A stretch of DNA of 64,000 nucleotides from contig OZ244937.1 in assembly GCA_965222075.1 (NCBI GenBank), positions 1,152,001 through 1,216,000 on the forward strand, given 5' to 3'. This document shows, one piece after another, positions 3,661 through 62,604 of this stretch. Below the pieces are notes generated by a model. That model saw only the letters and a program-made list of their open reading frames with translations. It had not been told where the DNA came from and did no database searches. Numbering within the stretch: the stretch's first letter is position 1; every line of letters starts with the position of its first letter. Position numbers and translations under genes: made by a program. The stretch comes from Candidatus Latescibacterota bacterium (GTDB lineage: Bacteria > Latescibacterota > UBA2968 > GCA-2709665).

Positions 3661-3695
3661 GCCTGCCTGCGCGGCGCACCGCGCTGCAGGCAGGC
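3661..3695. repeat. 35-bp palindromic element, type A (intergenic)
   Basis: GCCTGCCTGCGCGGCGCACCGCGCTGCAGGCAGGC; identical copies at 8196-8230 (reverse) and 32319-32353, near-identical at 25377-25411. Confidence 0.95.
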
Positions 3696-3706
3696 CGCTC
3701 AGACGC

Positions 3707-3742
3707 CGCCTGTCTGCGTGCGTGTCCGCACGCAGACAGGCG
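3707..3742. repeat. 36-bp palindromic element, related type B
   Basis: CGCCTGTCTGCGTGCG-TGTC-CGCACGCAGACAGGCG, perfect 16-bp stem. Confidence 0.9.
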
Positions 3743-4000
3743 CTTTTGCAGCAGTACACCACGAAAATCGAGGACCATCAGAGAGATAGACGTTATGAGT
3801 TTTGGCAGTAAGTCTTTTCTTAAGGGTATGATAACAGGGTTGGTTCTGACGATGATCGTGGGTCTTCTGGGGTACCGTTTTCTTTTTCCGTCTTCGGATG
3901 AAAACAAGGCCGGAGAAAAGAGTTGACCACCGCAAGGTCCCGAGGCCCGGAGTCCGGGACCGGCTGAGACATCGCATGCTGTGAAAGGAGGTAGCGTCTT

Positions 4001-4435
4001 ATGGATACGTTCAGGCGAATCGTCGGTGTGGTTCTCATCGTCACTGCGGTTGTGGTCGCAGTTCACACGGTTATCGAGCCGCTGTATTACACTTCCACCG
4101 AAGCCAGTCCGTACAGCCCGCATTGGGGCAAGATTAACCCGCTTATGGTGCTGGCGGTCGTGCTGGGTGTGATTTTCGGCTACATCCGCAAGAGAAGCGT
4201 TGACCGCGAGGGCGGCGATGCGCCGGTGACCCGCGAGTTTCTGGCAGCCAACACGCTGTTCTACGGTTTCCTGTTCGTTGGCATCCTGTTCTTCTGGAAC
4301 TGGTTCAATCTCCTCAGTCCCGCATTCACCGCAGTGGGAATGGATACGGTCTCTCTGGTGTGGATCATCATCGACACCGGGCTGCCGCTGCTGGCGGTCG
4401 TGCTGGGCCTATCCCTGCTGAGCGGCGACAAGTAA
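4001..4435 (+). CDS. Hypothetical membrane protein (about 4 TM helices)
   Basis: Strong RBS AAGGAGGT; four hydrophobic segments. Confidence 0.8.
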   Translation: MDTFRRIVGVVLIVTAVVVAVHTVIEPLYYTSTEASPYSPHWGKINPLMVLAVVLGVIFGYIRKRSVDREGGDAPVTREFLAANTLFYGFLFVGILFFWNWFNLLSPAFTAVGMDTVSLVWIIIDTGLPLLAVVLGLSLLSGDK

Positions 4436-4549
4436 GCCGCCAGCAGGTCAACGACGCCTTTTGGGGGGCATCTGAGCCACATACCGAGAGGTCAAACGCT
4501 GGAGTGGGGTTTCAGTACTGGGCGCAGAGGATAGACCCAGATGCGGAAC

Positions 4550-4582
4550 GGGCCTGTGAGGAGGTGGACAGGCCCTTTTTTT
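4550..4582 (+). terminator. Rho-independent terminator
   Basis: GGGCCTGT-N10-ACAGGCCC followed by a T run. Confidence 0.7.
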
Positions 4583-4677
4583 GTTCGCCGGCTCAAAACG
4601 ATTTATCGTGGGAGGGCGTAAAGCGACTTTTCTTTTTCCGAAATCTGTCTTATATTTCAAAAAAGAATCCGCCTGAT

Positions 4678-4709
4678 GAATACATGAGACAGATCTGTCT
4701 CATGTATTC
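4678..4709. promoter_or_regulatory. Perfect 32-bp palindrome, candidate enhancer (UAS) for gdhA
   Basis: GAATACATGAGACAGA|TCTGTCTCATGTATTC about 90 bp upstream of a sigma54 promoter. Confidence 0.6.
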
Positions 4710-4798
4710 TCTCCAAAGCTTCTCAGGTTGGGCCGGGAATTTTTGTATCGGTTTTAAAAACAATATGTTAATTCCTGACTCTCCAAATTTTGATTCCC

Positions 4799-4814
4799 TG
4801 GCACGACTATTGCC
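4799..4814 (+). promoter_or_regulatory. sigma54 (-24/-12) promoter of gdhA
   Basis: TGGCACG-ACTA-TTGC matches TGGCACG-N4-TTGC; IHF-like AAACAAtatgTTA at 4758-4770. Confidence 0.8.
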
Positions 4815-4878
4815 TGAGTAAATAGTAGAGGGTCTCCCACAAAGCAGACGAAATCCGTAAAGCAGATAGGAGGGTGTG

Positions 4879-6171: not shown

Positions 6172-6197
6172 GCAGGCTGCGGTAGGGATCGACGATG

Positions 6198-6230
6198 AAC
6201 ACCCCTGGAGGGATCCCCTCCAGGGGTGTT
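6198..6230. terminator. Hairpin between convergent gdhA and rraA-like genes
   Basis: AACACCCCTGGAGG-GATCC-CCTCCAGGGGTGTT. Confidence 0.75.
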
Positions 6231-6237
6231 TGTATTG

Positions 6238-6981
6238 TTATGAACTTTTCTCATCTTCCTCGGCAGCGTATGAATGCCCGTCGAAGATCGCTCTGACCTC
6301 CGCCGCCGTTTTCGCATTTTGCAATGCCTGAATTCGGGTTTCTTCTTCTTTTTGCAGCGCTTGAACACTGGCCAGGACGGCCTCAAGCCTGTCGCCTGGA
6401 AATTTGCAGGCGCCATTTTCGTCCATGTGGATAATCTCACCCGGAGAGACATCCATGCCCGCCACGGTGACGGGTACGTTGACCGCATGCACGGCCATGG
6501 CGCCGTGTCCTGCGGTGACGCCGCTGAGCATGTACTGGAACTTCATCGGACGTATTTCATCGATGTCCCTTGAAGGACCATTGGAGATGGCGCCCACACA
6601 CCCCACAGCGCTCATTGCACTTGTCATATTCCCCCCGGCCAGTCCGACCTTACCGGCTATCTCGGGTGGGAATTTTTGCTGAAAGACCAGAATCGACGGT
6701 TTTTTTGATTTATCCAGCGCGTCAATCACATCCATAAAGGACAGGCGCGCATAGTTCGGATCGGGCAATCCGAATACACATGTGACGGCATATCCAACGG
6801 TTCTGCCCAGTTCAGGATAGATGCAGCGGATGGATTGGTCGGTGTACCAGTTCTCGGTCCAGGGGTTGTAAAGACCCAAACAGAGAGGGCTTTGGGGATA
6901 GGTGGCCACGACATTGGTGATTGACGGTGTGTCGTGGTTTCGCAACGCCTCTAATATTTCCTGCTCAGCCGGTTTTGCCAC
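6238..6981 (-). CDS. RraA family / HMG aldolase-like protein
   Basis: DTPSITN, GYAVT, NGPSRDIDEI, VSPGEIIHMDENG; overlaps the purL stop. Confidence 0.85.
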   Translation of the reverse strand: MAKPAEQEILEALRNHDTPSITNVVATYPQSPLCLGLYNPWTENWYTDQSIRCIYPELGRTVGYAVTCVFGLPDPNYARLSFMDVIDALDKSKKPSILVFQQKFPPEIAGKVGLAGGNMTSAMSAVGCVGAISNGPSRDIDEIRPMKFQYMLSGVTAGHGAMAVHAVNVPVTVAGMDVSPGEIIHMDENGACKFPGDRLEAVLASVQALQKEEETRIQALQNAKTAAEVRAIFDGHSYAAEEDEKSS

Positions 6982-9900
6982 GGGTCACCTCCTTGGTGAT
7001 ATCGGGTTGGATCTGCTCGCACCAGGCTCTGGCGTTTTGGAACATGGTGAGCCAGGGGGAGGCGTTGAGATCGCGCCTCCAGTTCTGGGGCATAAAGCCC
7101 CACTGCCATTTGAGGAAGGTCCGCTCGGGATGGGGCATCATGGCCAGGTGGCGGCCGTCCGGCGAGCAGAGGGCCGCGATGCCGTCGGGAGAACCGTTGG
7201 GGTTAAAGGGATAGATCCCGGTGATGCGGCCGTTGTCGTCCACATAGCGGATGGGGGCCAGGTTCCGGGCTTTCACTTTGTTCAGGATATCCTGGTCGGA
7301 GAAGAAGGCCCGTCCCTCTCCGTGGGCGACCCAGATGCCGAGGGTGGCGCCTTCCATGCCCTGCAGCATGACCGCCGGGCTTTTCCGGATCTGCACGGTG
7401 GTGAAGCGGGACTCGAAGCGGCCGGAAGTATTCTGGATGAAGCGGGGCTGCACCCTGTGGGCGATGCCCTGCCAGGGCACCCAGCCCAGGAGGGCCATGA
7501 GCTGGCAGCCGTTGCATACGCCCAGGCTGAAGGTATCGGGGCGGTTGTAGAAGTCCTGAAACTGCTTCCAGAGGGTGGGGTTGAAGCGGATGGCTCCGGC
7601 CCAGCCCTTGGCCGAGTCTAAGACATCCGCGTAGCTGAACCCGCCCACGAAGGCGACGCCCTGGAAGGCATCCAAGCCGATGGTTGCGGCCAGGAGGTCG
7701 GACATGGCAACGTCCCAGGGCTCAAACCCGGCCGCGTAAAAGGCCGAGGTCATCTCCCGGTCGCCGTTGCTGCCCTCTTCTCGAAGGATGGCGATGCGGG
7801 GTTTGTTTTTGGACGCCAGGCGGGTGGGGGGGGTCGGTTCGGGAGTGAAGGGGAGCGAGTATTGGGGACCGGTCCGTTTCCGGAGGCCGGTCCGCTCCTG
7901 GTCCACGCAGTCGGGGTTGGCCTGAAGGCGGTCGAGCCGGTAGCTGGTCTCTTCCCAGAGGTCTCTGAGGTCCTTAACGTTGGCTTCAAGGACGGGCTGG
8001 CCGTTCAGGCGGATGCGGACGGTTTTGTCCGCTGTTGCGGCGCCGATGGCCAGGCAGGGTACGTCTGCCCGCCGGAAGGCCTCTAAGACGCGGGGTTCGT
8101 TTTCTGGGCTGACTTCGAGGAGGAGGCCGAGTTCTTCGGCGAAGAGAACGGGGAAGGGGTCGCCTGCCTCGTCGGCAGACAGGTGTGTGTCTCCGGCCTG
8201 CCTGCAGCGCGGTGCGCCGCGCAGGCAGGCGTTGAGGTCGACTTCGACGCCGCAGTTCCCGGCAAAAGCCATCTCTAAGAGGGCCGTGATGAGGCCGCCG
8301 TCGCTGCGGTCGTGGCCGGCGGTGATGGCGTCTTCGGCAATGAGCGTCTGGACGGCGTTGAAGGCCCGCTTGAGGAGGTTCGGATCATCGACGTCGGGCG
8401 CGTCGTTCCCGATCTGTTCGAAGACCTGCGCCAGGGTGGAACCGCCCAGCCGGTGTTTCCCGCCGCCCAGGTCGATGTAGAGGATGCGGCCGCTGCCGGG
8501 GTGTTTGAGGTCGGGGGTGACGGTTCTGGTGATGTCGGGGCAGGTGACGTAGGCGGAGATGACGAGGGCGCCGGGGGCCTTGACGGTCTCTTCCCCGCCC
8601 GGTCCATCCGGAGCGATGGCGGCCATGGAGAGGCTGTCTTTGCCGCCGTCGATGGCGATGCCGAGCCGGATGAGAACCTCGCGCAGGGCCACGGCGGCGG
8701 TGTAGAGGGCGGCGCCTTCGCCGGGGAGTTTGGCGGCCCACATCCAGTTGCCGGAGCATTTGACGTCTTCCAGGGCGCTGACCTGCGCCCAGACGAGGTT
8801 GGTGAGGGCCTCGCCGACGCCCATGCGGGCCATGGCAGCGGGATTGACCAGGCCTACGATGGGCTGTTCGCCGATGGCGGTGGCCGCGCCGGTGAGGCCG
8901 AAGTGGCTCTGAGCGATCACAGCGACATCGGCGACGGTAAGCTGGAGGGGGCCTGCGCACTGCTGCTGCGCGATGAGGCCGGTGACGCTGCGGTCGACTT
9001 TGCTGGTGAGGAAGCGTTTGGAGCCGACGGAAAGGAGGCGGAGCACCCGCTCTAAGGCGGCCTTGAAACTGAGGCCTTCCGGGAGGGCGAGGGGTTGCAG
9101 CACCGTCGGAATGCGCTCGAGTTCAAAGGTCTTTTGCGGCATGTCGCCCAGCACCCTGTCCAGGTCGAGGTTGACCGGGGTGGAGTTGTCGTGTTCGTCG
9201 TAGAGGACGACTTTTCCGTCTCCGGTGACCCGGCCCACAAAGGCGACCGGGACCTTTTCCCGCTCGCACAGGGCCTTGAAGCGGTCGGCGCGTTCCGGAC
9301 GGAGGAGGAGGGCGTCCTGTTCCTGGTATTCGGCGCCCCAGATTTCCAGGACGGAGAGGGTGTTATCGCCTACGGGGATCGCCCTGACGTTGATGCGGGC
9401 GCCCTGGGGAGCGACGATTTCTTTGAGGACGTTGCAGTTGCCGCCGGCGCCCTGGTCGTGGATGCTGACGATGGGATTGCCATCCCCCAGTTCGATGCAG
9501 GCGCGGATGACCCGGTTGGCCTTCTGCTCCATCTCCGCGTCGCCACGCTGGACGGCGTTGAAGTCGAGTTCGGCGATGTTTTTACCCTGGACCATGCTGG
9601 AGGCGGCACCCCCGCCCATGCCGATGCGATAGGCCGGACCGCCGATTTTGGCCACCCACATCTCCTTTTGGGGGCTGCCCTTTTCCACGTGCCGGGCGTC
9701 GATTTGCCCGATGCCCCCGCTGAACATGATCGGTTTGATCCATTCTCTGCGCTCGCCGCCCGGCAGCCGCAGCCCAAAGGCGCGGGTGTAGCCCTGGATG
9801 ACCGGCTCTCCGAATTTGTTGCCGTAGTCGGAGGCGCCGTTGCTGGCCTCGATCTCGATCCGGAGGGGCGAGGCCAGGTTGTCCGGGTAGAGGAAGTCGG

Positions 9901-10978
9901 GGCTTTCCCAGGGGAGGTCGTAGCCGGGGATGCGGAGGTTGCCCACACAGTAGGCGGCGGTTCCGGCAACGACGAGGGCGCCCCTGCCGGCGGCGTGTAC
10001 GTCGCGGATGCGGCCGCCGGTGCCGGTTTCGGCGCCGGGGAAGGGGGCCACGCCGGAGGGGAAGTTGTGGGTTTCGGCGGTAAAGATGATGTGATAGTCC
10101 GGATTTGCTTCCGCAAAAGGAGAGGGTTCGCCCGGGCATGCCGGGACGATGGTTTTAATGGCGTAGCCCCGGATGGCGCTGGCGTTGTCTTTAAAGGCGC
10201 TGGCGCTGTTGTTCGGGTTCGCTTTGAGGGGCTCCTGGATGAGGGCAAAAAGGTGCTTGGGTACCTCCTGGCCGTCGATGACCAGCCGGCCCTTGAAGAA
10301 CCAGTGGCGGGAATGTTCGCTGTTGGACTGGGCGATGTCGAAGCATTCGACGCTGGTGGGGTTGCGGAGGATGGTGTCCAGGAAGAGGTCGGTGTAGTAG
10401 TTCAGGTCCCACTCGTCGAAGGCCAGCCCCATTTCCCGGTTGATCCGCTCAAGGGCCGCCCTGCCTTCCTGGATGAGGGGGACCTGGGTGACCGGTTCGG
10501 GTTCAAGGCCGGTTTCGAAGGTGGTGAGGGGTTCAGGGTAAGGGCACTCGGTCATGCGGTCGTGGACCAGGTCCAGAAATGCGGTCTGTTGTGCCCGGTT
10601 CAGGGCAGGCGCGATCAGGTAGCGCTTAGAACGCTCGATGCGGACGATGCAGTCCAGGCCGCAGGCGCGGCAGACGGAGACGGCGTTGGTGGACCAGGCG
10701 GTGGTGAAGTTCATCCGGGGGCCGACTTCGAGGAGGGCGCCCTCTGTCTTGAGGAAGGATTCCGGCCCGAACCGGTGGGGTTCAAAGGTTTCGCTCAGCA
10801 GCCAGGTGAGGACCTTCTCCTGTTCCGGGGTCAGCGCGCTCTGGGTCTGGATGTTGAAGCAGTATTCGGTTTCGATGCTGTGGATGTCGGCGGAGACGCG
10901 TTCCACCGCGTCCTGGAGGAGGGTGCGCTTCTGGACGGGGGAAAGCCCGGGCGTGCGGTAGAGATGGTGCAGGCTCAT
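6965..10978 (-). CDS. purL: Phosphoribosylformylglycinamidine synthase, large single-chain type
   Basis: QSNSEHSRH, AETHNFP, HDQGAGG, HDRSDGG, GVCNGCQ, MMPHPER; contains an in-frame palindrome-derived insert. Confidence 0.97.
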   Translation of the reverse strand: MSLHHLYRTPGLSPVQKRTLLQDAVERVSADIHSIETEYCFNIQTQSALTPEQEKVLTWLLSETFEPHRFGPESFLKTEGALLEVGPRMNFTTAWSTNAVSVCRACGLDCIVRIERSKRYLIAPALNRAQQTAFLDLVHDRMTECPYPEPLTTFETGLEPEPVTQVPLIQEGRAALERINREMGLAFDEWDLNYYTDLFLDTILRNPTSVECFDIAQSNSEHSRHWFFKGRLVIDGQEVPKHLFALIQEPLKANPNNSASAFKDNASAIRGYAIKTIVPACPGEPSPFAEANPDYHIIFTAETHNFPSGVAPFPGAETGTGGRIRDVHAAGRGALVVAGTAAYCVGNLRIPGYDLPWESPDFLYPDNLASPLRIEIEASNGASDYGNKFGEPVIQGYTRAFGLRLPGGERREWIKPIMFSGGIGQIDARHVEKGSPQKEMWVAKIGGPAYRIGMGGGAASSMVQGKNIAELDFNAVQRGDAEMEQKANRVIRACIELGDGNPIVSIHDQGAGGNCNVLKEIVAPQGARINVRAIPVGDNTLSVLEIWGAEYQEQDALLLRPERADRFKALCEREKVPVAFVGRVTGDGKVVLYDEHDNSTPVNLDLDRVLGDMPQKTFELERIPTVLQPLALPEGLSFKAALERVLRLLSVGSKRFLTSKVDRSVTGLIAQQQCAGPLQLTVADVAVIAQSHFGLTGAATAIGEQPIVGLVNPAAMARMGVGEALTNLVWAQVSALEDVKCSGNWMWAAKLPGEGAALYTAAVALREVLIRLGIAIDGGKDSLSMAAIAPDGPGGEETVKAPGALVISAYVTCPDITRTVTPDLKHPGSGRILYIDLGGGKHRLGGSTLAQVFEQIGNDAPDVDDPNLLKRAFNAVQTLIAEDAITAGHDRSDGGLITALLEMAFAGNCGVEVDLNACLRGAPRCRQAGDTHLSADEAGDPFPVLFAEELGLLLEVSPENEPRVLEAFRRADVPCLAIGAATADKTVRIRLNGQPVLEANVKDLRDLWEETSYRLDRLQANPDCVDQERTGLRKRTGPQYSLPFTPEPTPPTRLASKNKPRIAILREEGSNGDREMTSAFYAAGFEPWDVAMSDLLAATIGLDAFQGVAFVGGFSYADVLDSAKGWAGAIRFNPTLWKQFQDFYNRPDTFSLGVCNGCQLMALLGWVPWQGIAHRVQPRFIQNTSGRFESRFTTVQIRKSPAVMLQGMEGATLGIWVAHGEGRAFFSDQDILNKVKARNLAPIRYVDDNGRITGIYPFNPNGSPDGIAALCSPDGRHLAMMPHPERTFLKWQWGFMPQNWRRDLNASPWLTMFQNARAWCEQIQPDITKEVTRGKTG
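8161..8185. repeat. Short palindromic element inside purL
   Basis: Minus strand CACCTGTCTGCCGACGAGGCAGGCG, encoding HLSADEAG. Confidence 0.7.
8196..8230 (-). repeat. 35-bp palindromic element type A, in-frame in purL
   Basis: Exact reverse complement of 3661-3695; encodes ACLRGAPRCRQA. Confidence 0.95.
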
Positions 10979-11038
10979 GGGACCTCGGTTTGGCCAGGCG
11001 GAGGTTTTCTGTAGACGACTCCCGACGCGCGATACCAG

Positions 11039-11067
11039 AATATGGATGGGGTATGGTTCGATGTCAA
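11039..11067 (-). promoter_or_regulatory. sigma70-like promoter of purL
   Basis: Minus strand TTGACA-N17-CATATT. Confidence 0.6.
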
Positions 11068-11115
11068 CCGTTTTCGTAACGGCAATAAAGCGAATTCACC
11101 TGAAATACTCCGGGA

Positions 11116-13248: not shown

Positions 13249-13272
13249 CTGTTTGCTCCTTTTTTTGTAAGG

Positions 13273-16400: not shown

Positions 16401-18605
16401 GTGAAGGGAAAGGTTGCCACAATGGGCATTTGGGCAGCGCTACAGGTTCTACAGGCCGGGGCGGATGGGACCGCCGAGCCGGACACGGTTGTGTTCGGGC
16501 CGGTGCGTGTGGGCACCGAGGCGGTGGATACGGTGCATATACGCAACACCGGAGCCGTGGACCTCCTGGTGGAGTCCGCCACACTGCCCGACACTGTGTA
16601 CACACTGCCCGCAGCGCCCTTTTCCGGGTCTCCGATTCTCCTGCACCCGGCCGATGTGTTAGACCTCCTGGTCCGATTCGCCCCACCCGATACCGGACGG
16701 TTTGCCGGACGCTTAGAGGTGGGGACAAACGGTGGGCCTGTGGGGGTGGACTTAGACGGCGAAGGGGCCTTCGAGGTGGTGGTGATCAATGAGATCCTGG
16801 CAGACCCGCCTTCCGGGGAGGCCGGGGACGCAAATGGGGACAGTATCCGGCACAGTAGCCAGGACGAGTTTGTGGAGTTGCTGAACATCGGACTGCGGTC
16901 TGTGGAACTGAGCGGGTGGCAGCTCAGCGACAAAGGGACGGATTCCGACAAGCGGTTCACCTTCCCGGCGGAGACCTGGATCGGGCCGGGGGAGCGGGTG
17001 GTGCTGTTTGGCGGGGGGGCGCCCGTGGAAATCGGAGGACAGGTTTTTACGGATGATGGCAAGCTCGGGAGCGGGTTGAGAAATTCCGGAGATGCCGTCT
17101 ATCTGATCGATCAGGCAGGCCCCGATACGGTGGCCCGGGCTACATACGGACCGGAGGGGGGTAAGGACCAGTCCCTGGTGCGTCATCCGGAGGGGAGGGG
17201 CGGATTCGTCCGGCACAGCTTCTTCCCGTCGAATGGGGCGCTTTTCTCTCCGGGGTTGCCCCGAATTATCCTCTCCGGCATCGAGATCCTGCCTTCGGAC
17301 ACATCGGTGGCGCTGGGAGAGACGTTCACCTTTGATGTCAAGGGGATCTTTGGAGATGGGGATGTGCGGACACTGGGGGACGAGGTGAGTTGGGAGGTAT
17401 CCGACACGACGGTTCTCGCGCTGGAAGGCAGGCACGCAGAGGCCAGGGGGTTGGGAGAGGTTAGCGTCACCGCGCTTGCCGGCGGACTGCGTTCACCGGA
17501 GGCCCGGGTAGAGGTGGTCGCCCCCGGGCTTGTCGGCCTGGTGCTTGCGCCTTCTGAGACGCTGGTGCTGGTTGGAGACTCGATTGTCTACGCTGTAGAG
17601 GGGGTCTACCCAGACAGCAGCCGGGAACGCATCGGCGGGGGGCTGGTCTGGACGGTGTCGGATTCCTCGGTGGCCCGCCCGGCGGGTGGAAACGGGGTGC
17701 TGGCCCTGGGGCCGGGGTCGACGGTGGTGTGGGCAGGCCTGGAGGCGCTGCTGGGGACGGCGTTACTGCGGGCTGCCGAGGTGGGAGATCTGAACGCCGA
17801 TGGGGCGCGTGATCTCTTAGACGCCCTCCATTCGGTTCACCTGATTTTAGACGCGTCGGCGACCCCTTTTGAACGGCGCGCGGCAGACCTGAACGGGGAC
17901 GGCGAGATCGATATTCTCGACCTGGCCAGGCTCATCGCATGGATTCTGGGAAAGCCCATCGCAAGCGCAAAGGCAGTGCCGCCGGGCATCGCCACATGGC
18001 GGATAGAGGGTGGCACAATCCTCAGCGTGGAGATCCCGGTGGCGCTGCGGGCGATCTCCTTAGAGGTAGAGGGGCCGGTCGAGGAGATGCACTTAGAGGA
18101 GGGGGGTGAGGCCGTGTTGACCCAACGACGTACGCCGCACGGGACGCTAAAAGCCCTGATCCATACCCTGTCCGAGAAGGGCATGCGGGGTCGGGATAGA
18201 ACGCTGCAAATCGGCCTGTCTTTGTCGGATGGGGGGCAGGTGGGGGACACTGTGGGCGTGGTGAGTATGCAGGGCGTCGACCTCTGGGGCGTCCGGGTGG
18301 GGTTTCAACAGGCCCCGGCCCTGCCGACGGCCTATGCCCTGAGCCAGAACCATCCCAACCCGTTCAACAGCGCCACGGTGATCGCCTACGACCTGCCGCA
18401 GGAGAGCCGGGTGGCGCTTCGGATCTTTTCCTGCCTCGGCCAGGAGGTGGCCCAACTGGTGGACGGACCGGTGCGCGCAGGCACCCACCGGGTACGCTGG
18501 GACGGCCAGGACCGAAGTGGCCGACGGGTCGCCAGCGGGGTCTATCTCGTCTGTCTGGAAGCGGACACCTACCGGGCCGTGGTGAAGATGGTCCTGTTGC
18601 GGTAA
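16401..18605 (+). CDS. Secreted multidomain protein: Ig-like (ASH-type), lamin-tail domain, 2x Ig-like, dockerin, C-terminal FlgD-Ig sorting-type domain
   Basis: VVINEILADP...DEFVELLN...LSGWQLSD (LTD); GDLNADGARDLLD...ADLNGDGEIDILD (dockerin); QNHPNPFN...WDGQDRSGRRVASGVY. Confidence 0.88.
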   Translation: MKGKVATMGIWAALQVLQAGADGTAEPDTVVFGPVRVGTEAVDTVHIRNTGAVDLLVESATLPDTVYTLPAAPFSGSPILLHPADVLDLLVRFAPPDTGRFAGRLEVGTNGGPVGVDLDGEGAFEVVVINEILADPPSGEAGDANGDSIRHSSQDEFVELLNIGLRSVELSGWQLSDKGTDSDKRFTFPAETWIGPGERVVLFGGGAPVEIGGQVFTDDGKLGSGLRNSGDAVYLIDQAGPDTVARATYGPEGGKDQSLVRHPEGRGGFVRHSFFPSNGALFSPGLPRIILSGIEILPSDTSVALGETFTFDVKGIFGDGDVRTLGDEVSWEVSDTTVLALEGRHAEARGLGEVSVTALAGGLRSPEARVEVVAPGLVGLVLAPSETLVLVGDSIVYAVEGVYPDSSRERIGGGLVWTVSDSSVARPAGGNGVLALGPGSTVVWAGLEALLGTALLRAAEVGDLNADGARDLLDALHSVHLILDASATPFERRAADLNGDGEIDILDLARLIAWILGKPIASAKAVPPGIATWRIEGGTILSVEIPVALRAISLEVEGPVEEMHLEEGGEAVLTQRRTPHGTLKALIHTLSEKGMRGRDRTLQIGLSLSDGGQVGDTVGVVSMQGVDLWGVRVGFQQAPALPTAYALSQNHPNPFNSATVIAYDLPQESRVALRIFSCLGQEVAQLVDGPVRAGTHRVRWDGQDRSGRRVASGVYLVCLEADTYRAVVKMVLLR

Positions 18606-18606
18606 G

Positions 18607-21600
18607 ATGCGACGGGGGCTCGGTCTGGTCGCGATGGGGTTGGTGTTGGGGACGGGTGAGATCCCTGCGCAGACCGATACCCTGCGGGTCCGGGGCGGCG
18701 TGGTGGGAGTGGGAGATACCCTGATGGCGGAGGTTGTGTTGAAGAATCTGACCCCGATTTCGGGGGCATCGTGGACCGTGGGCTTTGAGAAGGGGATGAT
18801 GACGCCTCTGGAGGTGGAACCAACGGAACGGACGGAGACGATGGAGGCGTATTCCCATACAGCGGGCGATTCTCTGCGCGTGTTGATGCTCGACCCTGTC
18901 CTGGGCAGCGCCGTGCCTCCAGGGGAGGGGGCCATCGCCCGGGTGCGTTTCCTGGTTGACGGTGCGGCGAGGATTGGGGTCTACCCCCTGCGCCTGATCC
19001 AGGCCGACCTGGGCGACGATGCCCATCCCCCCGGGAAGATCGAGCCGGTCCGGATCGACGGAGAGGTCACGGTGACCGGCTTTGTGGCGCGTATGGGGCA
19101 GGCCATGGGGTTGCCGGGAGATACGGTGGCTGTTGCGCTGATGCTGAAGAACCCCGAGCCGGCCGCCGGGCTTCAGGTGGAGCTGGCATGGGCCGGGGAG
19201 GTGCTTGCGTTCGTGGACGCCGCGTCCGAGGGTCGGGGAGGCGATTTCACCGCCTACGGGAGGTCCCGGCAGGCGGGGCAGGCTACGGTCTTGCTGACCG
19301 ACCTGTCGGGGACCTCCCTGTTGCCGGCCGGTGAGGGCGCTGTGCTCCACGTGCGGTTGCGGATTGTCGATGATGCAGCCGTTGGTGAGGTCCCGCTCCG
19401 GATCGCCCGTGCGCTGCTGCCGGATCCTGAAGGCAGGGCCCTGCCGGTCGTCGCCAGGGCAGGGAAAATTGAGGTTATGTTCCGTCCGAACCGATCTCCA
19501 AAACTCATTCTGCCAGAGACTGTTTTCGCTATTGAAGACTCTGGTTTCGTATGGCCGATTCCGGCTTCGGATTCCGATGGGGATGTATTGACCTTCACCC
19601 TCACATCGGCGCCCGGATGGGTGGGGTTGGATGCCGAAGCAGACCTCCTGATCGGCACGCCCGGGGATGCCGATGTGGGGGTACACGACGTGCGGATCCG
19701 TGTCTCAGACGGCGAAGCTGAAATAGAAGGCACCGTCCAAATCGAGGTCCTGAACAGGGCGCCTGAGATCGTGGGCACCCCACCCCTGCGGGCACGGGTG
19801 GGGACGACCTACCGCTACTCCCCGCAGATCCATAATCTGGACGGGGGACAGATCCGGATGGAGACTGAGACAGAGGGTGTTAGGCTGGATGCTTCGACCG
19901 GGGCACTCTTGTGGACGCCGACCCGGGCGGGAGATGCGATGTTCTCCCTCATCGCATCCGACCCCCACGGGGCAGAGGCCGTACAGACCTTCACCCTATC
20001 GGTAGAGGCCCGGCCTCAAGTCGTTATCGATGAGATCCTGGCAGATCCCCCCCCCGGGCTGGAAGGCGATGCCAACGGCGATGGCCTCGAGACAGCAAGG
20101 CAGACGAGTTCGTGGAGGTGCTCAACCTGGGGGCAGAAGCGGTAAATATCGGCGGGTGGACATTGAGCGACGACGATGTCTCGGAAGCCCGGCGGTTCCG
20201 TTTTCCAAAAGGTACGGTGCTGGGGTCTCTTGAGCGTGGGGTGTTGTTTGGGGGTGGGGAGCCGTTGGGGGTTCCCTTGTATTTGTTGACGATGGGAGCA
20301 TCGGCAATGGGGAATTCGGGGGATGTGGTGCTGCTGATCGATCCGGCCTTTGACGATACGGTGGCCTATGTCGCGGGTGGAAGGGAACCTGAATACGTCC
20401 CTTGCCCGGCAGGCAACCGGAGCCTACGCGCCGGATACCTTTCCCGGAAACGGGCGCTTTTCTCCAGGGCTTCCCCGTCCGATGCTGGAGTGGCTGGAGT
20501 TGACGGATTCCCTGCAGATAGGCGCAAGGGGCGTTGTGAAGGCAATTGCGCACTACAGCGAGACCCACCGAGAAGTGACGGGAGAGGTGAGCTGGCGTGT
20601 GGATTCGGACCTGAAGGTGGAAGGGAATGGAGAGCATCGGGGTATCTGTCGGTCGTGCAGAGATTTCCGGGACGTGGTATACGGCTGTGGCAAAACAGGA
20701 GAGATCGAGACCAAACCAGGCGCCTGTGTTGCCCCCGCAGACGGCCCTGGAGGATCAGGCTGGCCGCCTCGACCCGGACGGGGCACTGGTATCCGGCCCG
20801 GCCTGGCTTCGGTGGACGTGAGCGGGAGACCGGCAGACGCGGGAGGGGCCGGGGTGGTGGTGGCGGTAACCGACCGTGCCTGGAGACGCCCTTTGAAATC
20901 AAGGTGGAGATGGGCACCCCACCCCTGCGGGCACGGGTGGGGACGACCTACCGCTACTCCCCGATCCATCAGATCCGGATGGAGACTGAGACAGAGGGTG
21001 TTAGGCTGGATGCTTCGACCGGGGCACTCTTGTGGACGCCGACCCGGGCGGGAGATCGCATCCGACCCCCACGGGGCAGAGGCCGTACAGACCTTCACCC
21101 TATCGGTAGAGGCCCGGCCTCAAGTCGTTATCGATGAGATCCTGGCAGATCCCCCCCCCGGGCTGGAAGGCGATGCCAACGGCGATGGCCTGCGAGACAG
21201 CAAGGCAGACGAGTTCGTGGAGGTGCTCAACCTGGGGGCAGAAGCGGTAAATATCGGCGGGTGGACATTGAGCGACGACGATGTCTCGGAAGCCCGGCGG
21301 TTCCGTTTTCCAAAAGGTACGGTGCTGGGGTCTCTTGAGCGTGGGGTGTTGTTTGGGGGTGGGGAGCCGTTGGGGGTTCCGGGGCTTGTATTTGTTGACG
21401 ATGGGAGCATCGGCAATGGGCTGACGAATTCGGGGGATGTGGTGCTGCTGATCGATCCGGCCTTTGACGATACGGTGGCCTATGTCGACTACCGGGTGGA
21501 AGGGAACCTGAATACGTCCCTTGCCCGGCAGGCAACCGGAGCCTACGCGCCGCACGATACCTTTCCCGGAAACGGGCGCTTTTCTCCAGGGCTTCCCCGT

Positions 21601-24600: not shown

Positions 24601-25074
24601 GATACCGGGTACAGCGGGGGGAAGGTGGGGGCGTCGCTGGTGCCGGACCCGCGCCAGCAGGGACAGTGGGTCGCCCATACGGCCGTGTCGAACCGCCGCT
24701 TTTCCCCAGGAACGGTGGAGACGGTCGTCCCGACGGAGGCGGATACATCGGAAGCACACCCGGCCGGGGCCGACGCCCTCACATCCGCAGATGCGGATAC
24801 ATCCTCAAGATTCGAGCCTCCAACCCCAAATCCCTTCAACCAGAGCACGAGGGTCGGGTTCCGGACGGACGGCGGGGAAGTCCGGCTGACGGTTTTCAGC
24901 ATCCTGGGCCAGCCTGTGCGCCGACTCGTCCGGGAAGACTTCCCGCCCGGGCGCCACCGGGTGGTCTGGGATGGAAGGGACGATACGGGCCGGCCGGCCG
25001 GCTCGGGGGTCTACCTGATCTGTATTGAGACAGGTAAAACCACCCATACGATGCGTGTGCTGCTTCTTCAGTAG
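18607..25074 (+). CDS. Large secreted protein: 2x cohesin-like, cadherin/Ig-like repeats, 5x lamin-tail domain, C-terminal FlgD-Ig; frame disrupted at 20087-21058
   Basis: ORFs 18607-20145 and 20350-25074 share a frame; the intervening DNA is a deletion-riddled copy of the intact repeat that follows; cohesin-like GDTV.V...LKN....AG.Q....W and PAGEG.VL..RL.I patterns. Confidence 0.8.
19765..22742 (+). repeat. Intragenic tandem repeat, 1263-bp (421-aa) unit, about 2.5 copies
   Basis: Marker TCCGACCCCCACGGGGCAGAGG at 19957, 21061 and 22324; spacings 1104 and 1263 bp. Confidence 0.93.
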
Positions 25075-32300: not shown

Positions 32301-32619
32301 CGCTTCACAGGACGGTGCGCCTGCCTGCGCGGCGCACCGCGCTGCAGGCAGGCCGGACGGGAATGCGTCGTTGGTGATCTCGGTGTCGGACACGGGGACC
32401 GGCATCCCGGCGGATCAGCTCGAGGCGATCTTCCAGGAGTTCCGACAGGTGGATGGGTCCATCACGCGGAAGCACCATGGCACCGGGTTGGGACTGACTA
32501 TTACGAAGCGGCTGGCGGAGCTGCTGGGCGGGACGATCCGTGTGGAGAGTGAGGTTGGTAGAGGGTCCACGTTTACGGTAAAGGTGCCGGTGGCGTACAG
32601 GGGGAAGGAGGAAGGATAA
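29329..32619 (+). CDS. Sensor histidine kinase with periplasmic beta-propeller repeats
   Basis: Repeated DG.LWF.T...G.SR.DG..W..YT..DGL; TM helix; FLANMSHEVRTP; NLLSNAVKFT; GTGLGL. Confidence 0.93.
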   Translation: MQTAGPQTCHRFQFFLFLLLFLTSVSPALAVDTLQVSSPDRVLEPWRWTVFNRSNGLAGQVYDIFEDRDGNIWFATDRGAQRYDGIRWVTYTKEDGLAHNDVRTMIQTQDGAMWFGTYGRGISRFDGTTWTTYTAGDGLASDRIWWRGLVQAQDSSLWAAGDREEANGGQASGVSRFDGATWTTVEVPSGPYPLDVNSIFEASDGALWFPTWGQGALRFNGVEWTRFTTGEGLAGDVVLQMLEGSDGALWFACGRDGISRFKEKRWKTYTARNGLPEGTTIGALWMTDDGTVWAGIGDGRISRFDGDRWRTYSSRDLPQLGTRLHGQSTRDGVFWVWGRGKDSVFRLDYASSKWKVFDLEDPLFGGAETADGCIWFGTWRGAVRYDGAHWLRYTATDGLLDARIYRMQKTDDGSLWFFAAAFGTFRGVSRYENGAWLQYPPEAMGLDSAGGVFRAADGSFWVIGSSDGSSAASRYDGQAWQVYTREDGLVGTRLSHIYQTENGDLWFGAGPRRRMPEGSGVLRFDGERWTVFTTEDGLAHNHIYGLFQSPDGALWVGTQAGLSWFDGSAWHSYTYEGGLAGERPGGFTVGYEDLWFHYIRSLSSGVTRYDGATWKTYTTRDGLVDNRVGDIYRASDGALWFATEGGVSRFDGASWISYTEENGLPDNTVRRIWQSSDGRMWFETRDGKAAGFTIDNVGPETTIASASGEISSGGNILLRWSGRDLWEGTPPGDLRYQCRMDGGAWSPVTDRTDLTFTGLSSGQHRFEVRAVDRDLNVDATPAVRAFAVEAPWWKHPWVLGLVAVFVGVTGFQASRLVASNRKLKEVNAALSKANKGLFEANVQIQEANRLKSQFLANMSHEVRTPMNAIIGFTRLVLRRGADRLSKQHQDNLVKVMLSAEHLLNLINDVLDLSKIEAGRLEVKPEPFDVKRTVVNACATVGPMVKDGVTMDYEVADHIGEAYTDESRLRQILINLLSNAVKFTDAGQVRVRASQDGAPACAAHRAAGRPDGNASLVISVSDTGTGIPADQLEAIFQEFRQVDGSITRKHHGTGLGLTITKRLAELLGGTIRVESEVGRGSTFTVKVPVAYRGKEEG
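32319..32353 (+). repeat. 35-bp palindromic element type A, in-frame in the HATPase domain
   Basis: Identical to 3661-3695; encodes APACAAHRAAGRP. Confidence 0.95.
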
Positions 32620-43824: not shown

Positions 43825-46566
43825 ATGAGCGCAACGGAAACAGATGCCCGGGTTGCTACGATGACGCTGGACGGCGAAGCGGTCGGTTTTACCCAGGGCG
43901 AGACGATCTACGAAGTGGCCCAACGGTGCCGGAAGGAGATCCCGACACTCTGTTACGACCCCAGACTGGAGCCGTTCGGGGGCTGTCGGCTGTGCGTGGT
44001 GGAGGTGGAGGGGGCGCGGACCCCGGTGGCGTCGTGTACAACAAAAGCTACCCCGGAGATGGTTGTGTGCACGACGACGGAGGCGATCACGAAGCACCGG
44101 AAGACGCTGCTGGAGATGGTCGTGTCTGAGAACCGTGAGGTCGACGTGGACCCGCTGCGGGGCTATGCCTCGCAGGAGCTTTCGGCGCTTGTGGACCGGT
44201 ACGGGGCGGGTACGGGCCGCTTTGCCGGGGCGGGGTCGGGGGTGAGCAAGGAGGACGACAATCCCTTCCTGTTGCGGGATTACGATCTGTGCATCTCCTG
44301 CTACCGGTGCGTGCGGGTGTGCGCGGAGCAGGAGGGAGACCACGCGATCAATGTGATGAACCGGGGGTTCCACACGCAGATTACGACCGAGTTCGACGGT
44401 GTTTTGAAAGATTCGTCATGTACCTTCTGCGGGCAGTGCGTGCAGACCTGTCCGACGGGCGCGCTGGGTGACAAGAAGGCGATGCGCGCGGCCGAGGCGC
44501 CGGGCGAGATCGAGAAGACCCGGTCGATCTGCCCTTACTGCGGGGTGGGCTGCTCGGTGGATATTATGACGAAGGGGGAGCAGGTCGTGGGCATCCAGCC
44601 GGCGATGGACGGCCCGGCGAACTTGGGCGCGCTGTGCGTGAAGGGGCAGTTCGCATTTGATTTCGTACAGCACCCGGACCGGTTGACGATGCCGCTTGTG
44701 CGGGGGGAGGACGGGGCGTTTCACGAGACGGGTTGGGACGAGGCGCTGGACCGGGCGGCTGCGGGCTTCCGGAAGGCGTTGGAGAAGCACGGGAGGTACA
44801 GCGTCTACGGGGTGGCTTCGGGCCGGGCGCCGAACGAGGCGGCCTATGCGATGCAGAAGTTTATTCGGGTGGGGTTTGGCACCAACCAGATCGACAACTG
44901 CAGCCGTGCGTGACACGCCCCAACGGTTGCCGGTCTGGCAGCCACAATCGGACGGGGCGCCATGTCGAACCCGCTGGCCGACATGGAGAGGCCGGATGTT
45001 ATTTTCTGCATCGGGACGAATATGACCGAGTGTCACCCGGTGGCGGCGACCGGCCTGAAGAAGGCGCTGGCCCGGGGGGCGAAGATGATCGTCGCCGATC
45101 CCAGACGCATCCCGCTGGCGGAGATGGCGGATCTGCACCTGCCCATCCGGGTGGGCTCGGATGTACCCCTGCTTCTGGCGATGGCGCACGTCATCGAGCG
45201 TGAAGGGCTCGTGAATGAGCAGTTCATCGGCGAGCGTACGGTGAAGGGCGAGGAATTCTTAGCGCACGTCAAGGAGTACCCGCCCGAGTGGGCGGAGCAG
45301 ATTACCGGGGTGCCCGCCAAAGATATCGAGACGGCCGCGATCTGGTACGGGAAGGCGGAGAGGGGGGCGATCTATTACACTTTGGGGATTACCGAACACA
45401 TCTGCGGCGTGGACAACGTGCAGAGCCTGTGCAACTTAGCCCTGATGACCGGCAACGTGGGACGCGAGGGCACGGGCATCAACCCGATGCGCGGTCAGAA
45501 CAACATCCAGGGCGCGGGGGATTCCGGCGCGATTCCGTCGGACTTTCCAGGTTTCCAGCCGTGTGCTGACTCTGAAAACGTAGAGAAATTCTCGGAGATC
45601 TACGGCCGGGATATCGACGCCGAGAAGGGGATTACGAAGGTTACGGCGTTGGAGATGTGCGGAGACCAGATCCGGGCGATGCTCATCGACGGGGAAAATA
45701 CCTTGCTGTCGGATCCGGACCGCCAGCACTGTGAGCACGCGCTGAAGAGCCTGGACCACCTTGTGGTGATTGACATCTTCCTGACCGAGACGGCGCAGCT
45801 GGCCGATGTTGTGTTCCCCGCAACGGCCTGGGCCGAGACCGACGGGGTGTGCGCGAATACGGAGCGGCGAGTGCAGCGTTTGCGCGCAGCCGTTCCGCCG
45901 GCGGGGCAGGCGAAGCCGGACTGGTGGATTGTCGCCCAGATTGCGAAACGCGCGGGGCTCAAAGGCTTCGATTGGGAATCTCCTAAAGAGGTGTTCAACG
46001 AGCTGTGCAGCGTATCGCCAATCTACTCCGGTCTGGACTGGGACCGGATCGATAAGGGGGAATACCAGTGGCCGGTGCCGGACAAAGACCATCCGGGGAC
46101 GCCGATTCTGCACCAGGAGGAGTTCCGAAACGGGCGGGGGATTTTCACCCGCCACCGGTACCGCAGTCCGGCCGAGACCGTCAGCGCAGAATTTCCGGTG
46201 TGGCTCACAACAGGGCGGCGGTTGCAGTCTTATCACACACGCACGCAGACGGGCCGCGCAGAGGGGATCGATTACCTGCTGTCCGAGGAGGCCTTAGAGG
46301 TGCATCCCGACGATGTGGTGGCATGGGGGCTTCAGGACGGCGGCTGGTGCCGTCTGTCGAGTTCGCGCGGTTCGGTCGTGATCAAGGTCAAGAGCACGGA
46401 GCAGTCGCCGCGGGGCACGGTGTTTGCAAGCTTCAGCTTCAGCGATGTACCCGTAAACATCCTGACGGGATCGGGCTACGACCCGATCACCGAAACCGCC
46501 GAGCTCAAGGTCTGTCCGGTGTGCGTGGAGCCGGTCGAGAATCCGGAAGCGGTGCCGGCGGATTAG
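43825..46566 (+). CDS. fdhF: Formate dehydrogenase alpha subunit, selenocysteine-containing
   Basis: ORFs 43825-44913 and 44962-46566 share a frame and are joined by TGA in NCSRA-U-HAPTVAGL; CPYCGVGC, RGQNNIQG, LTTGR. Confidence 0.93.
44911..44952 (+). promoter_or_regulatory. Sec codon and bacterial SECIS hairpin
   Basis: TGA CAC GCC CCA AC GGTTGCC-GGTCT-GGCAGCC, closely resembling the E. coli fdhF SECIS. Confidence 0.88.
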
Positions 46567-53648: not shown

Positions 53649-53695
53649 TCAGCACGAGTCAAAAAGCCCTGGGATGGTATGAAAGAGGACTGGGT

Positions 53696-55920: not shown

Positions 55921-55952
55921 TGCGAAAGCCATTCGTATGGGGAGGAAGCCGG

Positions 55953-57011: not shown

Positions 57012-57023
57012 TCGGGAGGGTTT

Positions 57024-57887: not shown

Positions 57888-57941
57888 GCCCCCATCCCCC
57901 AGGACAGTAGAAGCGGTTGAAGCCGGGCAAACGAGGCGCTG

Positions 57942-58982: not shown

Positions 58983-59146
58983 GCGATGACAGAGATTTCA
59001 CTTTCTGAGCTGGTCCCGGTCAGTCTATGCAGGGCCGAATCCGACGGTGAGCACCTGAGGCTTTCAGGATACGGAGCAGGAGCTGAAATAAATCGGACGG
59101 GAGATCCCCGGGCAAGGGGCGCCTTTATGACGAGGGAGGGAGCAAG

Positions 59147-60346: not shown

Positions 60347-60406
60347 GATTCGAGCGCGACGCAGACCCCCAACCTCCCAGGACTTCGTGTGAAAAAGGAG
60401 CAGGAA

Positions 60407-61789
60407 ATGTTAGACAAAACATCTCTCTTAACCGACGAGCAGATGAGATTTTTTATTGTCAATGGATACGTCACGGTCAAAACCGACCTGCCTCCCGGCT
60501 TTCATGGAGCCGTCTTCGAACAGACCGCAGCTGTGTTTGAAAAAGAAGGCAATCCGGGGAACAATTTACTGCCCAGAATCCCTGCTGTTCGAAAGGTCTT
60601 CGATTCTGAGGCCGTGCAGGGCGCCCTGAGAAGTATTTTGGGAGAAGATTATTACATGCAGCCCCATCGCCACTGCCACTACAATCGGCCGGCAAGTCAG
60701 GGGCAAAACATGCATCAGGACGGAGGGAAGCGATGGTCACATCTCACGCGTTGGATACTGGCTTTTTATTATCCTCAAGATACGTTCCAGGCGCTGGGTC
60801 CCACGGGAATCATTCCGGGAAGTCACTATTATAACACACCGGACAGCGCCAAGATCAGCGAGGAACTCCCACTGTGTGGAGAAGCAGGTACGGTAACGAT
60901 TGCCCACTATGATCTCTGGCACAGGGCGATGCCGAATCGCAGCGATCAGAGACGTTATATGATGAAGTTCCTCTTTGCCCGAATGTCGGAGCCCCAATCT
61001 CCTTCCTGGAACAGTGAGCAGACTGATCCGTGGCAAAATGATCCGATTGATGATAAGCGCCAAAGGATGTTTAAACACGTTTGGAACTGGCACTGTGGGC
61101 AGACAAACGGCGGTATGCCACAAGCTCCCCGGTCCGGTGCAGGGTCTATATCGAAGCTTATGGAAGCGCTGGGAAGCGATTGGGAGCCGGCAGGTCTCCA
61201 TGCCGCTTATGCATTAAGTGCGTTCGGAGCGCCGGCCGTGCCTGCGTTGATAGAAGGATTGGGTCATGAATCTGAGACGATATGCCGAAACACCTGCTAT
61301 GCGCTGAGTGCAATGGGGACGCCTGCTGTTGGTGCGTTAATCGGCGCATTGCGCGATGGAGACTGGCGGATTCGTGATCGTGCAGCAGAAACGCTGGGAG
61401 ATATGGGTCTCCCTGCGCGAGCCGCTTTACCTGCGTTAATGCAGGCAATACAGGATGAATCGGAGGAGGTTCGGTCTCATGCGGCTGAAGCGTTAGGGAC
61501 GGTCGGTCAATTGGAGCCAACGACGGCCCCTGCGCTGATTTCAGGACTGCGGGATGAAAATGAGCGCGTCCGCTGCAACGCAACATTGGCATTGGCACGC
61601 CTGGGTGCGCATGCTAAGGATGCTGTTGATGCATTGCAAGCCGTACTTTCTGATGAAGATCGGTATGTTCGTGGTGATGCGGCTCATGCGCTTCACCGAA
61701 TAGGAACCCCGGAAGCCAAAGGCGTGCTGCTGCGATTCCTCACGATGTCCCGGTGGTGCCCGTCAACCACGTCAGACAGCACTTTTTGA
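60407..61789 (+). CDS. PhyH-family dioxygenase fused to HEAT repeats
   Basis: MHQD, PGSH, LWHR; C-terminal AVPALI..L.D....VR..AA.ALG repeats. Confidence 0.87.
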   Translation: MLDKTSLLTDEQMRFFIVNGYVTVKTDLPPGFHGAVFEQTAAVFEKEGNPGNNLLPRIPAVRKVFDSEAVQGALRSILGEDYYMQPHRHCHYNRPASQGQNMHQDGGKRWSHLTRWILAFYYPQDTFQALGPTGIIPGSHYYNTPDSAKISEELPLCGEAGTVTIAHYDLWHRAMPNRSDQRRYMMKFLFARMSEPQSPSWNSEQTDPWQNDPIDDKRQRMFKHVWNWHCGQTNGGMPQAPRSGAGSISKLMEALGSDWEPAGLHAAYALSAFGAPAVPALIEGLGHESETICRNTCYALSAMGTPAVGALIGALRDGDWRIRDRAAETLGDMGLPARAALPALMQAIQDESEEVRSHAAEALGTVGQLEPTTAPALISGLRDENERVRCNATLALARLGAHAKDAVDALQAVLSDEDRYVRGDAAHALHRIGTPEAKGVLLRFLTMSRWCPSTTSDSTF

Positions 61790-61797
61790 GGGTTTGC

Positions 61798-62604
61798 TCA
61801 GCCTTGCAGTCCTGCCTGCGTGCGTGCGGCAGCACGCGCAGGCAGGTCGGCGGTGACCGGTTCGTAGTCACGGGAGACAACCCAGTCCGGCCGGGGGTTC
61901 TGGACGCTTTTGGGGATGTTATCGATGGCGCTGTAGGCGAAGATCACCGTCTGGCGAGGCGCGGGTGAGAAGTTGTGATTGGAGCCGTGCACGATGTTGC
62001 AGTCGAAGAAGCAGACGTCACCGGCCTGGCCGACGACCGGATAGATCATGCCCTCGTCCGTAATGTGCTTCCGCAGCGCTTCGGGCTGGATGCACCACTG
62101 TTTGTAGCTTGTCGTCACGTCGTCGTCGTAGTGGTCGAGCACGCCCCACTTGTGGGACCCCGCGACGAGGAGTACGCAGCCGTTGTGAATCGTGTTTGGG
62201 CCGAACATGATCAGGACCGACACCAGGCGGTCATCAACGCCGTCGTATTGCCAGTAGCCGTAATCCTGGTGCCACAGCCAGACTGTGCCCTCAAAGGATT
62301 CCTTCAGGTTCAGCTTGCTGTGAAATATGTAGGCGTCGTCGCCCAGGATCTGTTTGACCGGTCCCCCGATTGCCTCCGATCTGCACATACTGCGCCAGGG
62401 CTCGACACGGCGATGCATGCAGAACACGGTGCGCACGGGTCCGCTCTTTTCTCTGACGATGTGCACCTCCTCGGGATTGTTCTTCTCATTCACCAGATCG
62501 GCGGTGGAGGCCCGCAGTTCGTCGATCTGCTGCGGAGACAGGAGCCCCGGTTGAAAGAGAAATCCCTGTTCACGGTATGTCTGAAGCTGTGTGTCGGTCC
62601 ACAT
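61798..62604 (-). CDS. PhyH-family dioxygenase (ectoine/proline hydroxylase-like)
   Basis: HSKLNLK, WHQDYGYW, GSHK, VHGSNHN.S..PR; RBS GAGAGG before ATG 62604. Confidence 0.88.
   Translation of the reverse strand: MWTDTQLQTYREQGFLFQPGLLSPQQIDELRASTADLVNEKNNPEEVHIVREKSGPVRTVFCMHRRVEPWRSMCRSEAIGGPVKQILGDDAYIFHSKLNLKESFEGTVWLWHQDYGYWQYDGVDDRLVSVLIMFGPNTIHNGCVLLVAGSHKWGVLDHYDDDVTTSYKQWCIQPEALRKHITDEGMIYPVVGQAGDVCFFDCNIVHGSNHNFSPAPRQTVIFAYSAIDNIPKSVQNPRPDWVVSRDYEPVTADLPARAAARTQAGLQG
61811..61846. repeat. 36-bp palindromic element forming the C-terminus of a PhyH gene
   Basis: CCTGCCTGCG...CGCAGGCAGG; encodes LPARAAARTQAG. Confidence 0.85.

Follow-up and report, generated by a model that had tools for sequence, protein, structure and literature searches.

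The window analyzed here is a stretch of 64,000 nucleotides (nt) of a Candidatus Latescibacterota genome (contig OZ244937.1, positions 1,152,001 to 1,216,000 of the forward strand), in which an earlier reading of the bare sequence (the original prediction) had noticed seven related hairpins, some between genes and some in frame within them. These hairpins are real and belong to an apparently undescribed family of mobile hairpins of very small size, which crosses phyla and has recently been active. The source genome of the window (G000) is one contig of 5.36 Mb with 59% GC, and it is compared below with a sister genome of the same genus (G001) whose purL is 94% identical to that of G000. The seven copies, here called units, are listed by position in the window together with their host genes and a larger host repeat.

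3616..3708, strand unassigned: left part of a noncoding host repeat of ~250 nt with ~50 copies in the genome, some of which hold a unit at a fixed site
3662..3694, minus strand: type A unit, 33 nt, intergenic, at the hot-spot site within a truncated copy of the larger host repeat
3709..3740, strand unassigned: atypical unit, 32 nt, a perfect palindrome with two tail-type ends (fold z -8.1)
6965..10978, minus strand: purL, large-form FGAM synthase of 1337 amino acids (aa), frame open despite both inserts
8163..8183, plus strand: 21-nt unit, in frame in purL, adding 7 aa
8197..8229, plus strand: type A unit, 33 nt, in frame in purL, adding 11 aa
25378..25410, minus strand: type A variant, 33 nt, intergenic, 6 nt behind a stop codon
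29329..32619, plus strand: gene for a beta-propeller sensor histidine kinase
32320..32352, minus strand: type A unit, 33 nt, in frame in the HATPase domain of the kinase, adding 11 aa
61798..62640, minus strand: gene for a PhyH-family dioxygenase
61811..61846, strand unassigned: 36-nt unit, in frame two codons ahead of the ancestral stop of the PhyH-family gene, adding 12 aa

A direct check of the sequence found all seven hairpins where they had been placed, although empty sites put six of the true units 1 to 2 nt further inside and leave only 61811-61846 unchanged. The three copies reported as identical over 35 bp do match exactly as units (3662, 8197 on the reverse strand, and 32320), and type A has no stop triplet in any of six frames. 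Four copies lie in coding frames, as noticed originally (purL twice, the histidine kinase and PhyH), and they add 7, 11, 11, and 12 aa, not the 8 to 13 aa first proposed. The terminal A-T pair that had been read as compensating for a G-C pair in a fourth copy is host target DNA outside the unit: one unit sequence is found with G|C, A|T, G|T, and G|G flanks, and at the 25378 copy, which has one internal base unlike type A, the G001 counterpart shows a 33-nt gap and reads C|C, both bases differing from the A and T of G000. The window holds no mobilizing gene, as the original prediction said, and an Rfam scan of it at the gathering score gave no structured-RNA matches.

Both purL units are missing from G001, whose gene is 54 nt shorter (33 + 21 nt), and from the 18 other relatives aligned, the site of the 33-nt unit being empty in 19/19 and the 21-nt unit absent throughout. 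The 13-nt spacer consists of codons of the ancestral purL. The two presumed tandem pairs consist of separately inserted units, spaced by 14 and 13 nt of host sequence, and are not dimers like the REPINs formed by repetitive extragenic palindromic (REP) sequences. Exact empty counterparts in G001 were also found for the kinase (33 nt) and the PhyH end (36 nt). At the place matching the 3662 copy, G001 carries the unit as a one-base variant, and the adjacent 3709 copy, probably a derived form of a 30-nt unit, is missing there.

The seven hairpins are no assembly artifact, since in contigs of three public sequencing runs from three studies the purL 21-mer is spanned and the 33-mer covered; one of the runs may be that of the source sample. 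One of these runs differs at six other letters in 2 kb, and none of the runs showed an empty purL allele. A joint in run X4 that skips 47 nt at 3666-3714 was left uncounted, its short side having only 25 letters.

Precise insertion and survival in coding frames

With alignments anchored away from the junctions, exact empty alleles were found at 21/24 non-self paralogous sites in G000 and at 6/7 sites in the part of G001 examined (945 kb plus two loci, about a quarter). Of the rest, two sites are partly nested and the other two are offset, by +2 and +6. None of the 31 empty alleles is shorter than its two flanks, that is, no target-site duplication of the kind left by DDE-type MITEs (miniature transposable elements with inverted repeats) was seen. 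Units insert precisely, without duplication or loss, in either orientation, and often adjoining or inside one another. At G000 2646021 a second unit is nested in a host unit that G001 has intact, without the nested one. These exact empty sites bear out the original view of a recently active, nonautonomous, and very small element that enters genes precisely and in frame.

Coding-like frames continue on both sides of only 41/254 loci in G000, compared with 63% of random positions, by a simple codon model that is blind to AT-rich genes. Insertions in core genes are thus mostly purged. Among the coding loci, 37/41 are in frame without a stop; among the other 213, 164 have a length of 3n, and 215/239 oriented copies lack a stop triplet in any frame. 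Since the 3n length and the stop-free sequence also hold outside coding loci, they are a property built into the family.

The idea that the element writes peptides into protein loops did not hold: survival in frame is the residue of strong purifying selection, not loop targeting. The PurL insertion place is one where solved homologs vary in length; a single-sequence AlphaFold model of PurL had a predicted local distance difference test score (pLDDT) of 35 and so gives no support on loop position. The 11 aa of the kinase insert lie within the ATPase domain, between conserved blocks. Another gene (G000 870611-870726, locus L716) contains two units, of 33 and 19 nt, both missing from G001, so the 19-mer shifts the frame. 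By a sequence motif, this gene resembles a type ISP restriction-modification protein. Unrelated short hairpin insertions of 23-29 nt also differ between G000 and G001 (G000 4276754 and 318719), and there may be more such families.

Number, anatomy, and target sites of the units

Far from being confined to the window, the family numbers 297 units at 254 loci of G000 in a structure-aware count whose filter misses the atypical 3709 copy; 217 loci hold a single unit and 37 hold two to four. The strict pattern CCTG(C/T)CT-N5-30-AG(A/G)CAGG gives 263 matches in G000, whereas an order-4 Markov genome gives 3 and the reversed pattern, used as a control, gives 0, so the hairpins are not due to chance. 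The looser pattern of the original prediction has 340 matches, with 97 expected. Single units measure 19-42 nt in the structure-aware count and fall into 116 distinct oriented sequences, of which 36 are multicopy, and the peptides that they encode change with frame and strand.

Judging from sequence comparison, the conserved fold is no plain palindrome, but appears to consist of a 5-bp stem, a bulge of CT, an upper hairpin that varies, and a CAGG tail left unpaired. The layout is 5'-CYYGC, CT bulge, variable upper hairpin, GCRRR, CAGG-3', with a length of 19-36 nt. The stem occurs as CCTGC/GCAGG (109), CCTGC/GCAGA (59), CTTGC/GCAAG (18), and CCCGC/GCGGG (6), with the mixed CCTGC/GCAAG found once, and these variants leave the CT bulge and the terminal CAGG unchanged (208 matches, 1 in the reversed genome). 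The tailed-hairpin register follows from these compensatory variants, in which the 5-bp stem is preserved and neither bulge nor tail changes. For the CTTGC variant the ends are confirmed by an exact empty site, and CCCGC forms of 21-36 nt with several upper hairpins occur in viral contigs, where they are read on the opposite strand. An apparent covariation of bulge and tail (CC with CGGG) was dropped, since it is the CCCGC variant read on the reverse strand. The AGGCAGG class is of uncertain orientation (22/251 unoriented).

At unambiguously oriented sites the target is C-N-B-R|Y-V in 61/101, a motif derived from the same 101 sites and present at 4.5% of genome positions, and the R|Y junction is found at 86/101, compared with 23% of positions. 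It is asymmetric, with C at -4 in 75% and G at +4 in 36% of cases. For one 27-mer at 112 distinct metagenome sites among the matches listed, R stands at -1 in 90%, Y at +1 in 80%, and C at -4 in 43%. This target is matched by the end of the unit itself, CAGG plus a following pyrimidine, and the match explains the head-to-tail and nested copies: 43/297 units lie in or on another unit, although single units hold only 0.35% of the motif sites, and 22/253 gaps between units are shorter than 100 nt (1.2 expected). The neutrality of sites within units must contribute to this nesting and clustering.

Complementary flanking bases, which belong to the host site, are in excess in G000 (127/221 with 89 expected; A|T 36 and G|C 31 of 101). 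This complementarity is not general, since G|T leads in the metagenomes (43/112 among the matches listed). We found 238 distinct flank pairs, no preference for hairpin loops as targets (43/238 sites and 96/714 controls, p 0.09), and no orientation relative to transcription (25/60).

Hosts, vehicles, and the search for a mobilizing enzyme

Strict counts in 31 relatives range from background to 302 (G009 302, G000 263, G003 180, G021 172, G002 112, G018 77), with 21/31 at 15 matches or fewer; in the phylum, 41 of 168 genomes contain a match and 8 reach at least 55. The family is not restricted to this phylum. It was found at 119 loci of viral contigs, the 27-mer pattern at no fewer than 121 metagenome loci of 31-70% GC, and the 27-mer itself exactly in plasmid pSTJ1 of Sulfuricystis multivorans, a betaproteobacterium. 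The 27-mer was not found in annotated phages, nor the type A 33-mer in viral contigs; plasmid matches to the window pair are weak, and no RNA is listed as holding the unit. Units travel between hosts in insertion sequence (IS) elements, prophages, and plasmids. Many of the viral matches (L170-L231) come from one GC-rich prophage family, with units in terminase, portal, head, and helicase-like genes named by motif. At four metagenome loci (L552, L574, L579, and L583) the 27-mer stands amid low-complexity repeats that read like tandem heptamers, a context reportedly known for the small dispersed repeats (SDRs) of Nostoc. Metabolic and transport genes of G003 (L290, L291, L295, and L296) are 88-94% identical to those of G000, while its purL is 73% identical, which points to recent gene exchange between genera.

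The densest clusters of units include DDE transposase genes of several families. The ~250-nt repeat, which has several hairpins and is present in G001 too, is the main hot spot: its fixed site holds a unit in 17 copies, the units being of more than one type, and is vacant in 25, and 11/22 type A copies, including 3662, sit at this one site.

A RAYT (REP-associated tyrosine transposase) or GIY-YIG partner flanked by the repeat, as suggested in the original prediction, was looked for and not found. The enzyme searches were a first look that can miss diverged genes. Among the Y1_Tnp/RAYT genes of 31 genomes none is flanked by a unit; 2/30 Y1 loci have one within 1.5 kb, neither as a flanking pair, and the intact tnpA locus of G000 (L022) has no half-site of the unit. 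Two apparently intact RAYT genes that the family search missed (G000 1858861-1859469 and 3242101-3242868) each have their own GTAG-type repeat. In G001, G013, G014, and G015 (L037-L040, L050) RAYT genes are flanked by REP arrays sharing a 9-nt word with the 3' end of the unit; this word occupies another structural position and is taken as chance.

Other candidate enzymes were rejected as well. The only GIY-YIG match in G000 is UvrC-sized, and no small GIY-YIG gene was found there or flanked by a unit. DUF559 occurs in 32/53 genomes, many without units, and the G003 gene amid units sits in its own repeats; Cas1 is present in 30/53. A comparison of three high-copy and two zero-copy genomes showed GxxExxY proteins and tyrosine integrases in all five, and these searches found in G000 no reverse transcriptase, IS110, Rpn, TnpB, resolvase, or four-helix bundle protein. 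G000 has two full-length tyrosine recombinases plus fragments; we read them as XerC/D because all five genomes have such a pair. No gene recurs beside the units in the 119 viral loci, in the 121 metagenome loci listed (122/164 chosen frames scanned), or in the G000 flanks compared with these. The high-identity segments shared with 26 loci of high-copy genomes are metabolic or IS genes, and orphan half-sites revealed no gene-bearing long form.

Possible mechanisms and relation to known elements

In IS200/IS605 elements, "peel and paste" transposition involves precise excision, no duplication, insertion 3' of a tetranucleotide, and a hairpin beside a terminal tetranucleotide (PMC5027513), and the single-strand HUH chemistry of the REP transposase TnpA-REP is an analog (PMC8266576). 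By this analogy we favor, tentatively and at a little less than even confidence, selfish gene-less units moved by a trans-acting enzyme with HUH-like single-strand chemistry. The grounds are the exact ends without duplication, the insertion 3' of a tetranucleotide, the bulged hairpin, and the target-like terminal tetranucleotide. A patchily distributed enzyme would bind the folded hairpin and make both cuts 3' of a C-N-B-R tetranucleotide, which is the target at the left end and the CAGG tail at the right; the tiny single-stranded unit would be released and joined to a new C-N-B-R|Y site. The unit would then act as a lone right end of an IS200/IS605 element or as a single tagged REP. Its 3n length and stop-free sequence would have evolved by letting lineages survive landing in genes, and the added peptides would be tolerated rather than selected. 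That copy number is patchy within genera argues for a patchy enzyme. A more far-reaching version, to which we give less credence, is that the unit could be a near-smallest transposon, made of a hairpin read by a protein and a cut site of four bases, which a novel patchy enzyme would move in single-stranded form and insert scar-free at degenerate sites; 3n and stop-free lengths would let the family cross phyla and persist in essential proteins, and host-specific variants of the enzyme would set the target preference.

Several observations weigh against an HUH-like enzyme. Computed minimum-energy folds mostly favor a fully closed register for the common forms, and the covariation comes from two variant lineages only. 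There is no guide sequence 5' of the hairpin, unlike IS200/IS605 ends, and no bias to the lagging-strand template (106/229, p 0.29; unambiguous class 47/109, p 0.18), a bias known for IS608 and ISDra2 (PMC5027513). The cut dinucleotide of G000 is mostly self-complementary, which hints at a symmetric enzyme, although this is not so in the metagenomes. No mobilizer was found among eleven candidate families and three neighborhood screens: the Y1/RAYT genes of G000 have GTAG-type repeats of their own and lie 10-29 kb away from any unit, several high-copy genomes showed no intact IS200-like tnpA, and IS91 Y2 genes, which are intact in two zero-copy genomes (G004 and G007), were not found in intact form in high-copy ones.

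Some of these points would suit a site-specific recombinase or nuclease-ligase of another class that uses a symmetric B-R|Y-V core, such as a serine recombinase, a small nuclease that escaped annotation, or a tyrosine recombinase that, like those of integrons, acts on folded strands. The lack of target duplication and of strand bias, together with the self-complementary cut dinucleotide in G000, agrees with such an enzyme, and the bulged hairpin with a variable top can be likened to attC sites, which have this form. Nevertheless, we think it unlikely, because the target is asymmetric, the tyrosine recombinases of G000 are taken for XerC/D, and no resolvase, IS110, or small GIY-YIG was found in that genome. 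The empty searches and the very wide host range would also fit there being no dedicated enzyme at all, stable hairpin oligonucleotides being caught at nicks or gaps by common host proteins that serve repair or replication, with bursts after chance introduction or lost surveillance. This seems improbable to us, since repair would hardly yield exact ends and a sequence-specific target, close relatives keep 1-11 copies unamplified, and the invariant bulge and tail imply a reader protein.

Hairpins kept for a host function, as a terminator, RNA stabilizer, or uptake or protein-binding signal, would have stable folds and lie mostly outside core coding DNA, as these do. Such a role is very improbable when counts run from background to ~300 within one family, units show no orientation to transcription and break IS and other accessory genes, and empty orthologous sites suggest no positional conservation between species. 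Passive spread within larger repeats and IS elements or by gene conversion may account for part of the distribution, given the shared site of half the type A copies and the dense clusters in transposase genes; as a sole cause it is largely refuted, and the least credible of these accounts, for single-copy core genes (purL, kinase, PhyH) have exact empty orthologs and unrelated flanks, the flank pairs are as diverse as given above, and different units occupy the same host-repeat site. It could be a contributor at most.

The literature searched, outside whose scope lay subscription papers, figures, and supplements, held no description of the family and no paper with its end motifs. By analogy, the family would work like a single tagged REP, a Nostoc SDR, and a Rickettsia palindromic element, yet it departs from REP/RAYT, MITE, Ssn/SRM, and Rickettsia elements in the features compared. 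The Nostoc SDRs (Elhai et al. 2008) are said to be mobile elements of ~20-30 nt with preferred sites and no known enzyme, with nested insertion and shared structure; we liken them to the present family by description, not sequence. They are cited in PMC5861425, PMC2884548, and PMC3116915, and PMC5861425, as far as cited here, reports them in Nostocaceae only, whereas this family spans Latescibacterota, a betaproteobacterial plasmid, phages, and metagenomes of 31-70% GC.

REPs and REPINs with RAYT share an imperfect bulged palindrome of 20-40 nt, an unpaired end tetranucleotide, and hundreds of patchy copies, some in frame (PMC3733652, PMC8266576, PMC6006769). Intragenic in-frame REPs are thus already described (PMC3733652, PMC6006769), and that trait alone is not new. 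However, the REP tag is GTAG or CGTC, whereas that of the unit is CAGG (top strand) or CCTG (bottom), and neither "CCTG" nor "CAGG" occurs in the main text of PMC3733652. REPs are cut at CT and form mostly inverted dimers (REPINs or bacterial interspersed mosaic elements), whereas here the cut is R|Y, single units with exact ends nest in one another, and 217/254 loci hold single units. The RAYT genes of G000 are flanked by other repeats, so by tag, RAYT flanking, and dimers alike the family falls outside REP/RAYT. With IS200/IS605 it shares precise insertion 3' of a tetranucleotide without duplication; those elements have two ends, tnpA, a guide, and lagging bias, and this family has one hairpin, a degenerate target, and none of these, so no end hairpins are shared with a tnpA element. 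Rickettsia palindromic elements also insert in frame in unrelated metabolic genes, but they are ~150 bp long and genus-restricted (PMC10969869), and are defined as elements of ~100-150 bp with a conserved peptide, in contrast to cross-phylum units of 19-36 nt with varying peptides. The NTS/SRM hairpins of Ssn nucleases are likewise oriented repeats with hundreds of copies, although the SRM motif is unrelated in sequence and rarely lies in genes (PMC11893778), and no small GIY-YIG gene of the kind that such repeats flank was found in G000 or between copies of this unit.

By what route very small palindromic repeats such as single REPs, Nostoc SDRs, and Rickettsia elements enter new sites has been asked for a long time. 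In this family, filled and empty alleles are exact, nesting reveals the order of events, the anatomy is defined and has variants that covary, single genera include both high- and zero-copy genomes, and the plasmid of a cultured bacterium holds a copy, which together make the enzyme search directly testable. A scar-free inserter of hairpins with a variable payload would be of interest as a tool, and the family is a natural source of protein insertions of 7-12 residues.

Elsewhere in the window, all four runs show very deep contig coverage and numerous joints at 4064-4445, which points to another multicopy repeat. Surface-protein genes with lamin-tail and Ig domains occupy 16401-25074 and have near-identical internal repeats of ~1.1-1.3 kb; the breaks around 20145-20350 could stem from a frameshift or from the assembly. 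At 43825-46566, the alpha subunit of a molybdopterin oxidoreductase (formate dehydrogenase-like) lies in two frames, split at 44913/44962, where a selenocysteine codon is possible.

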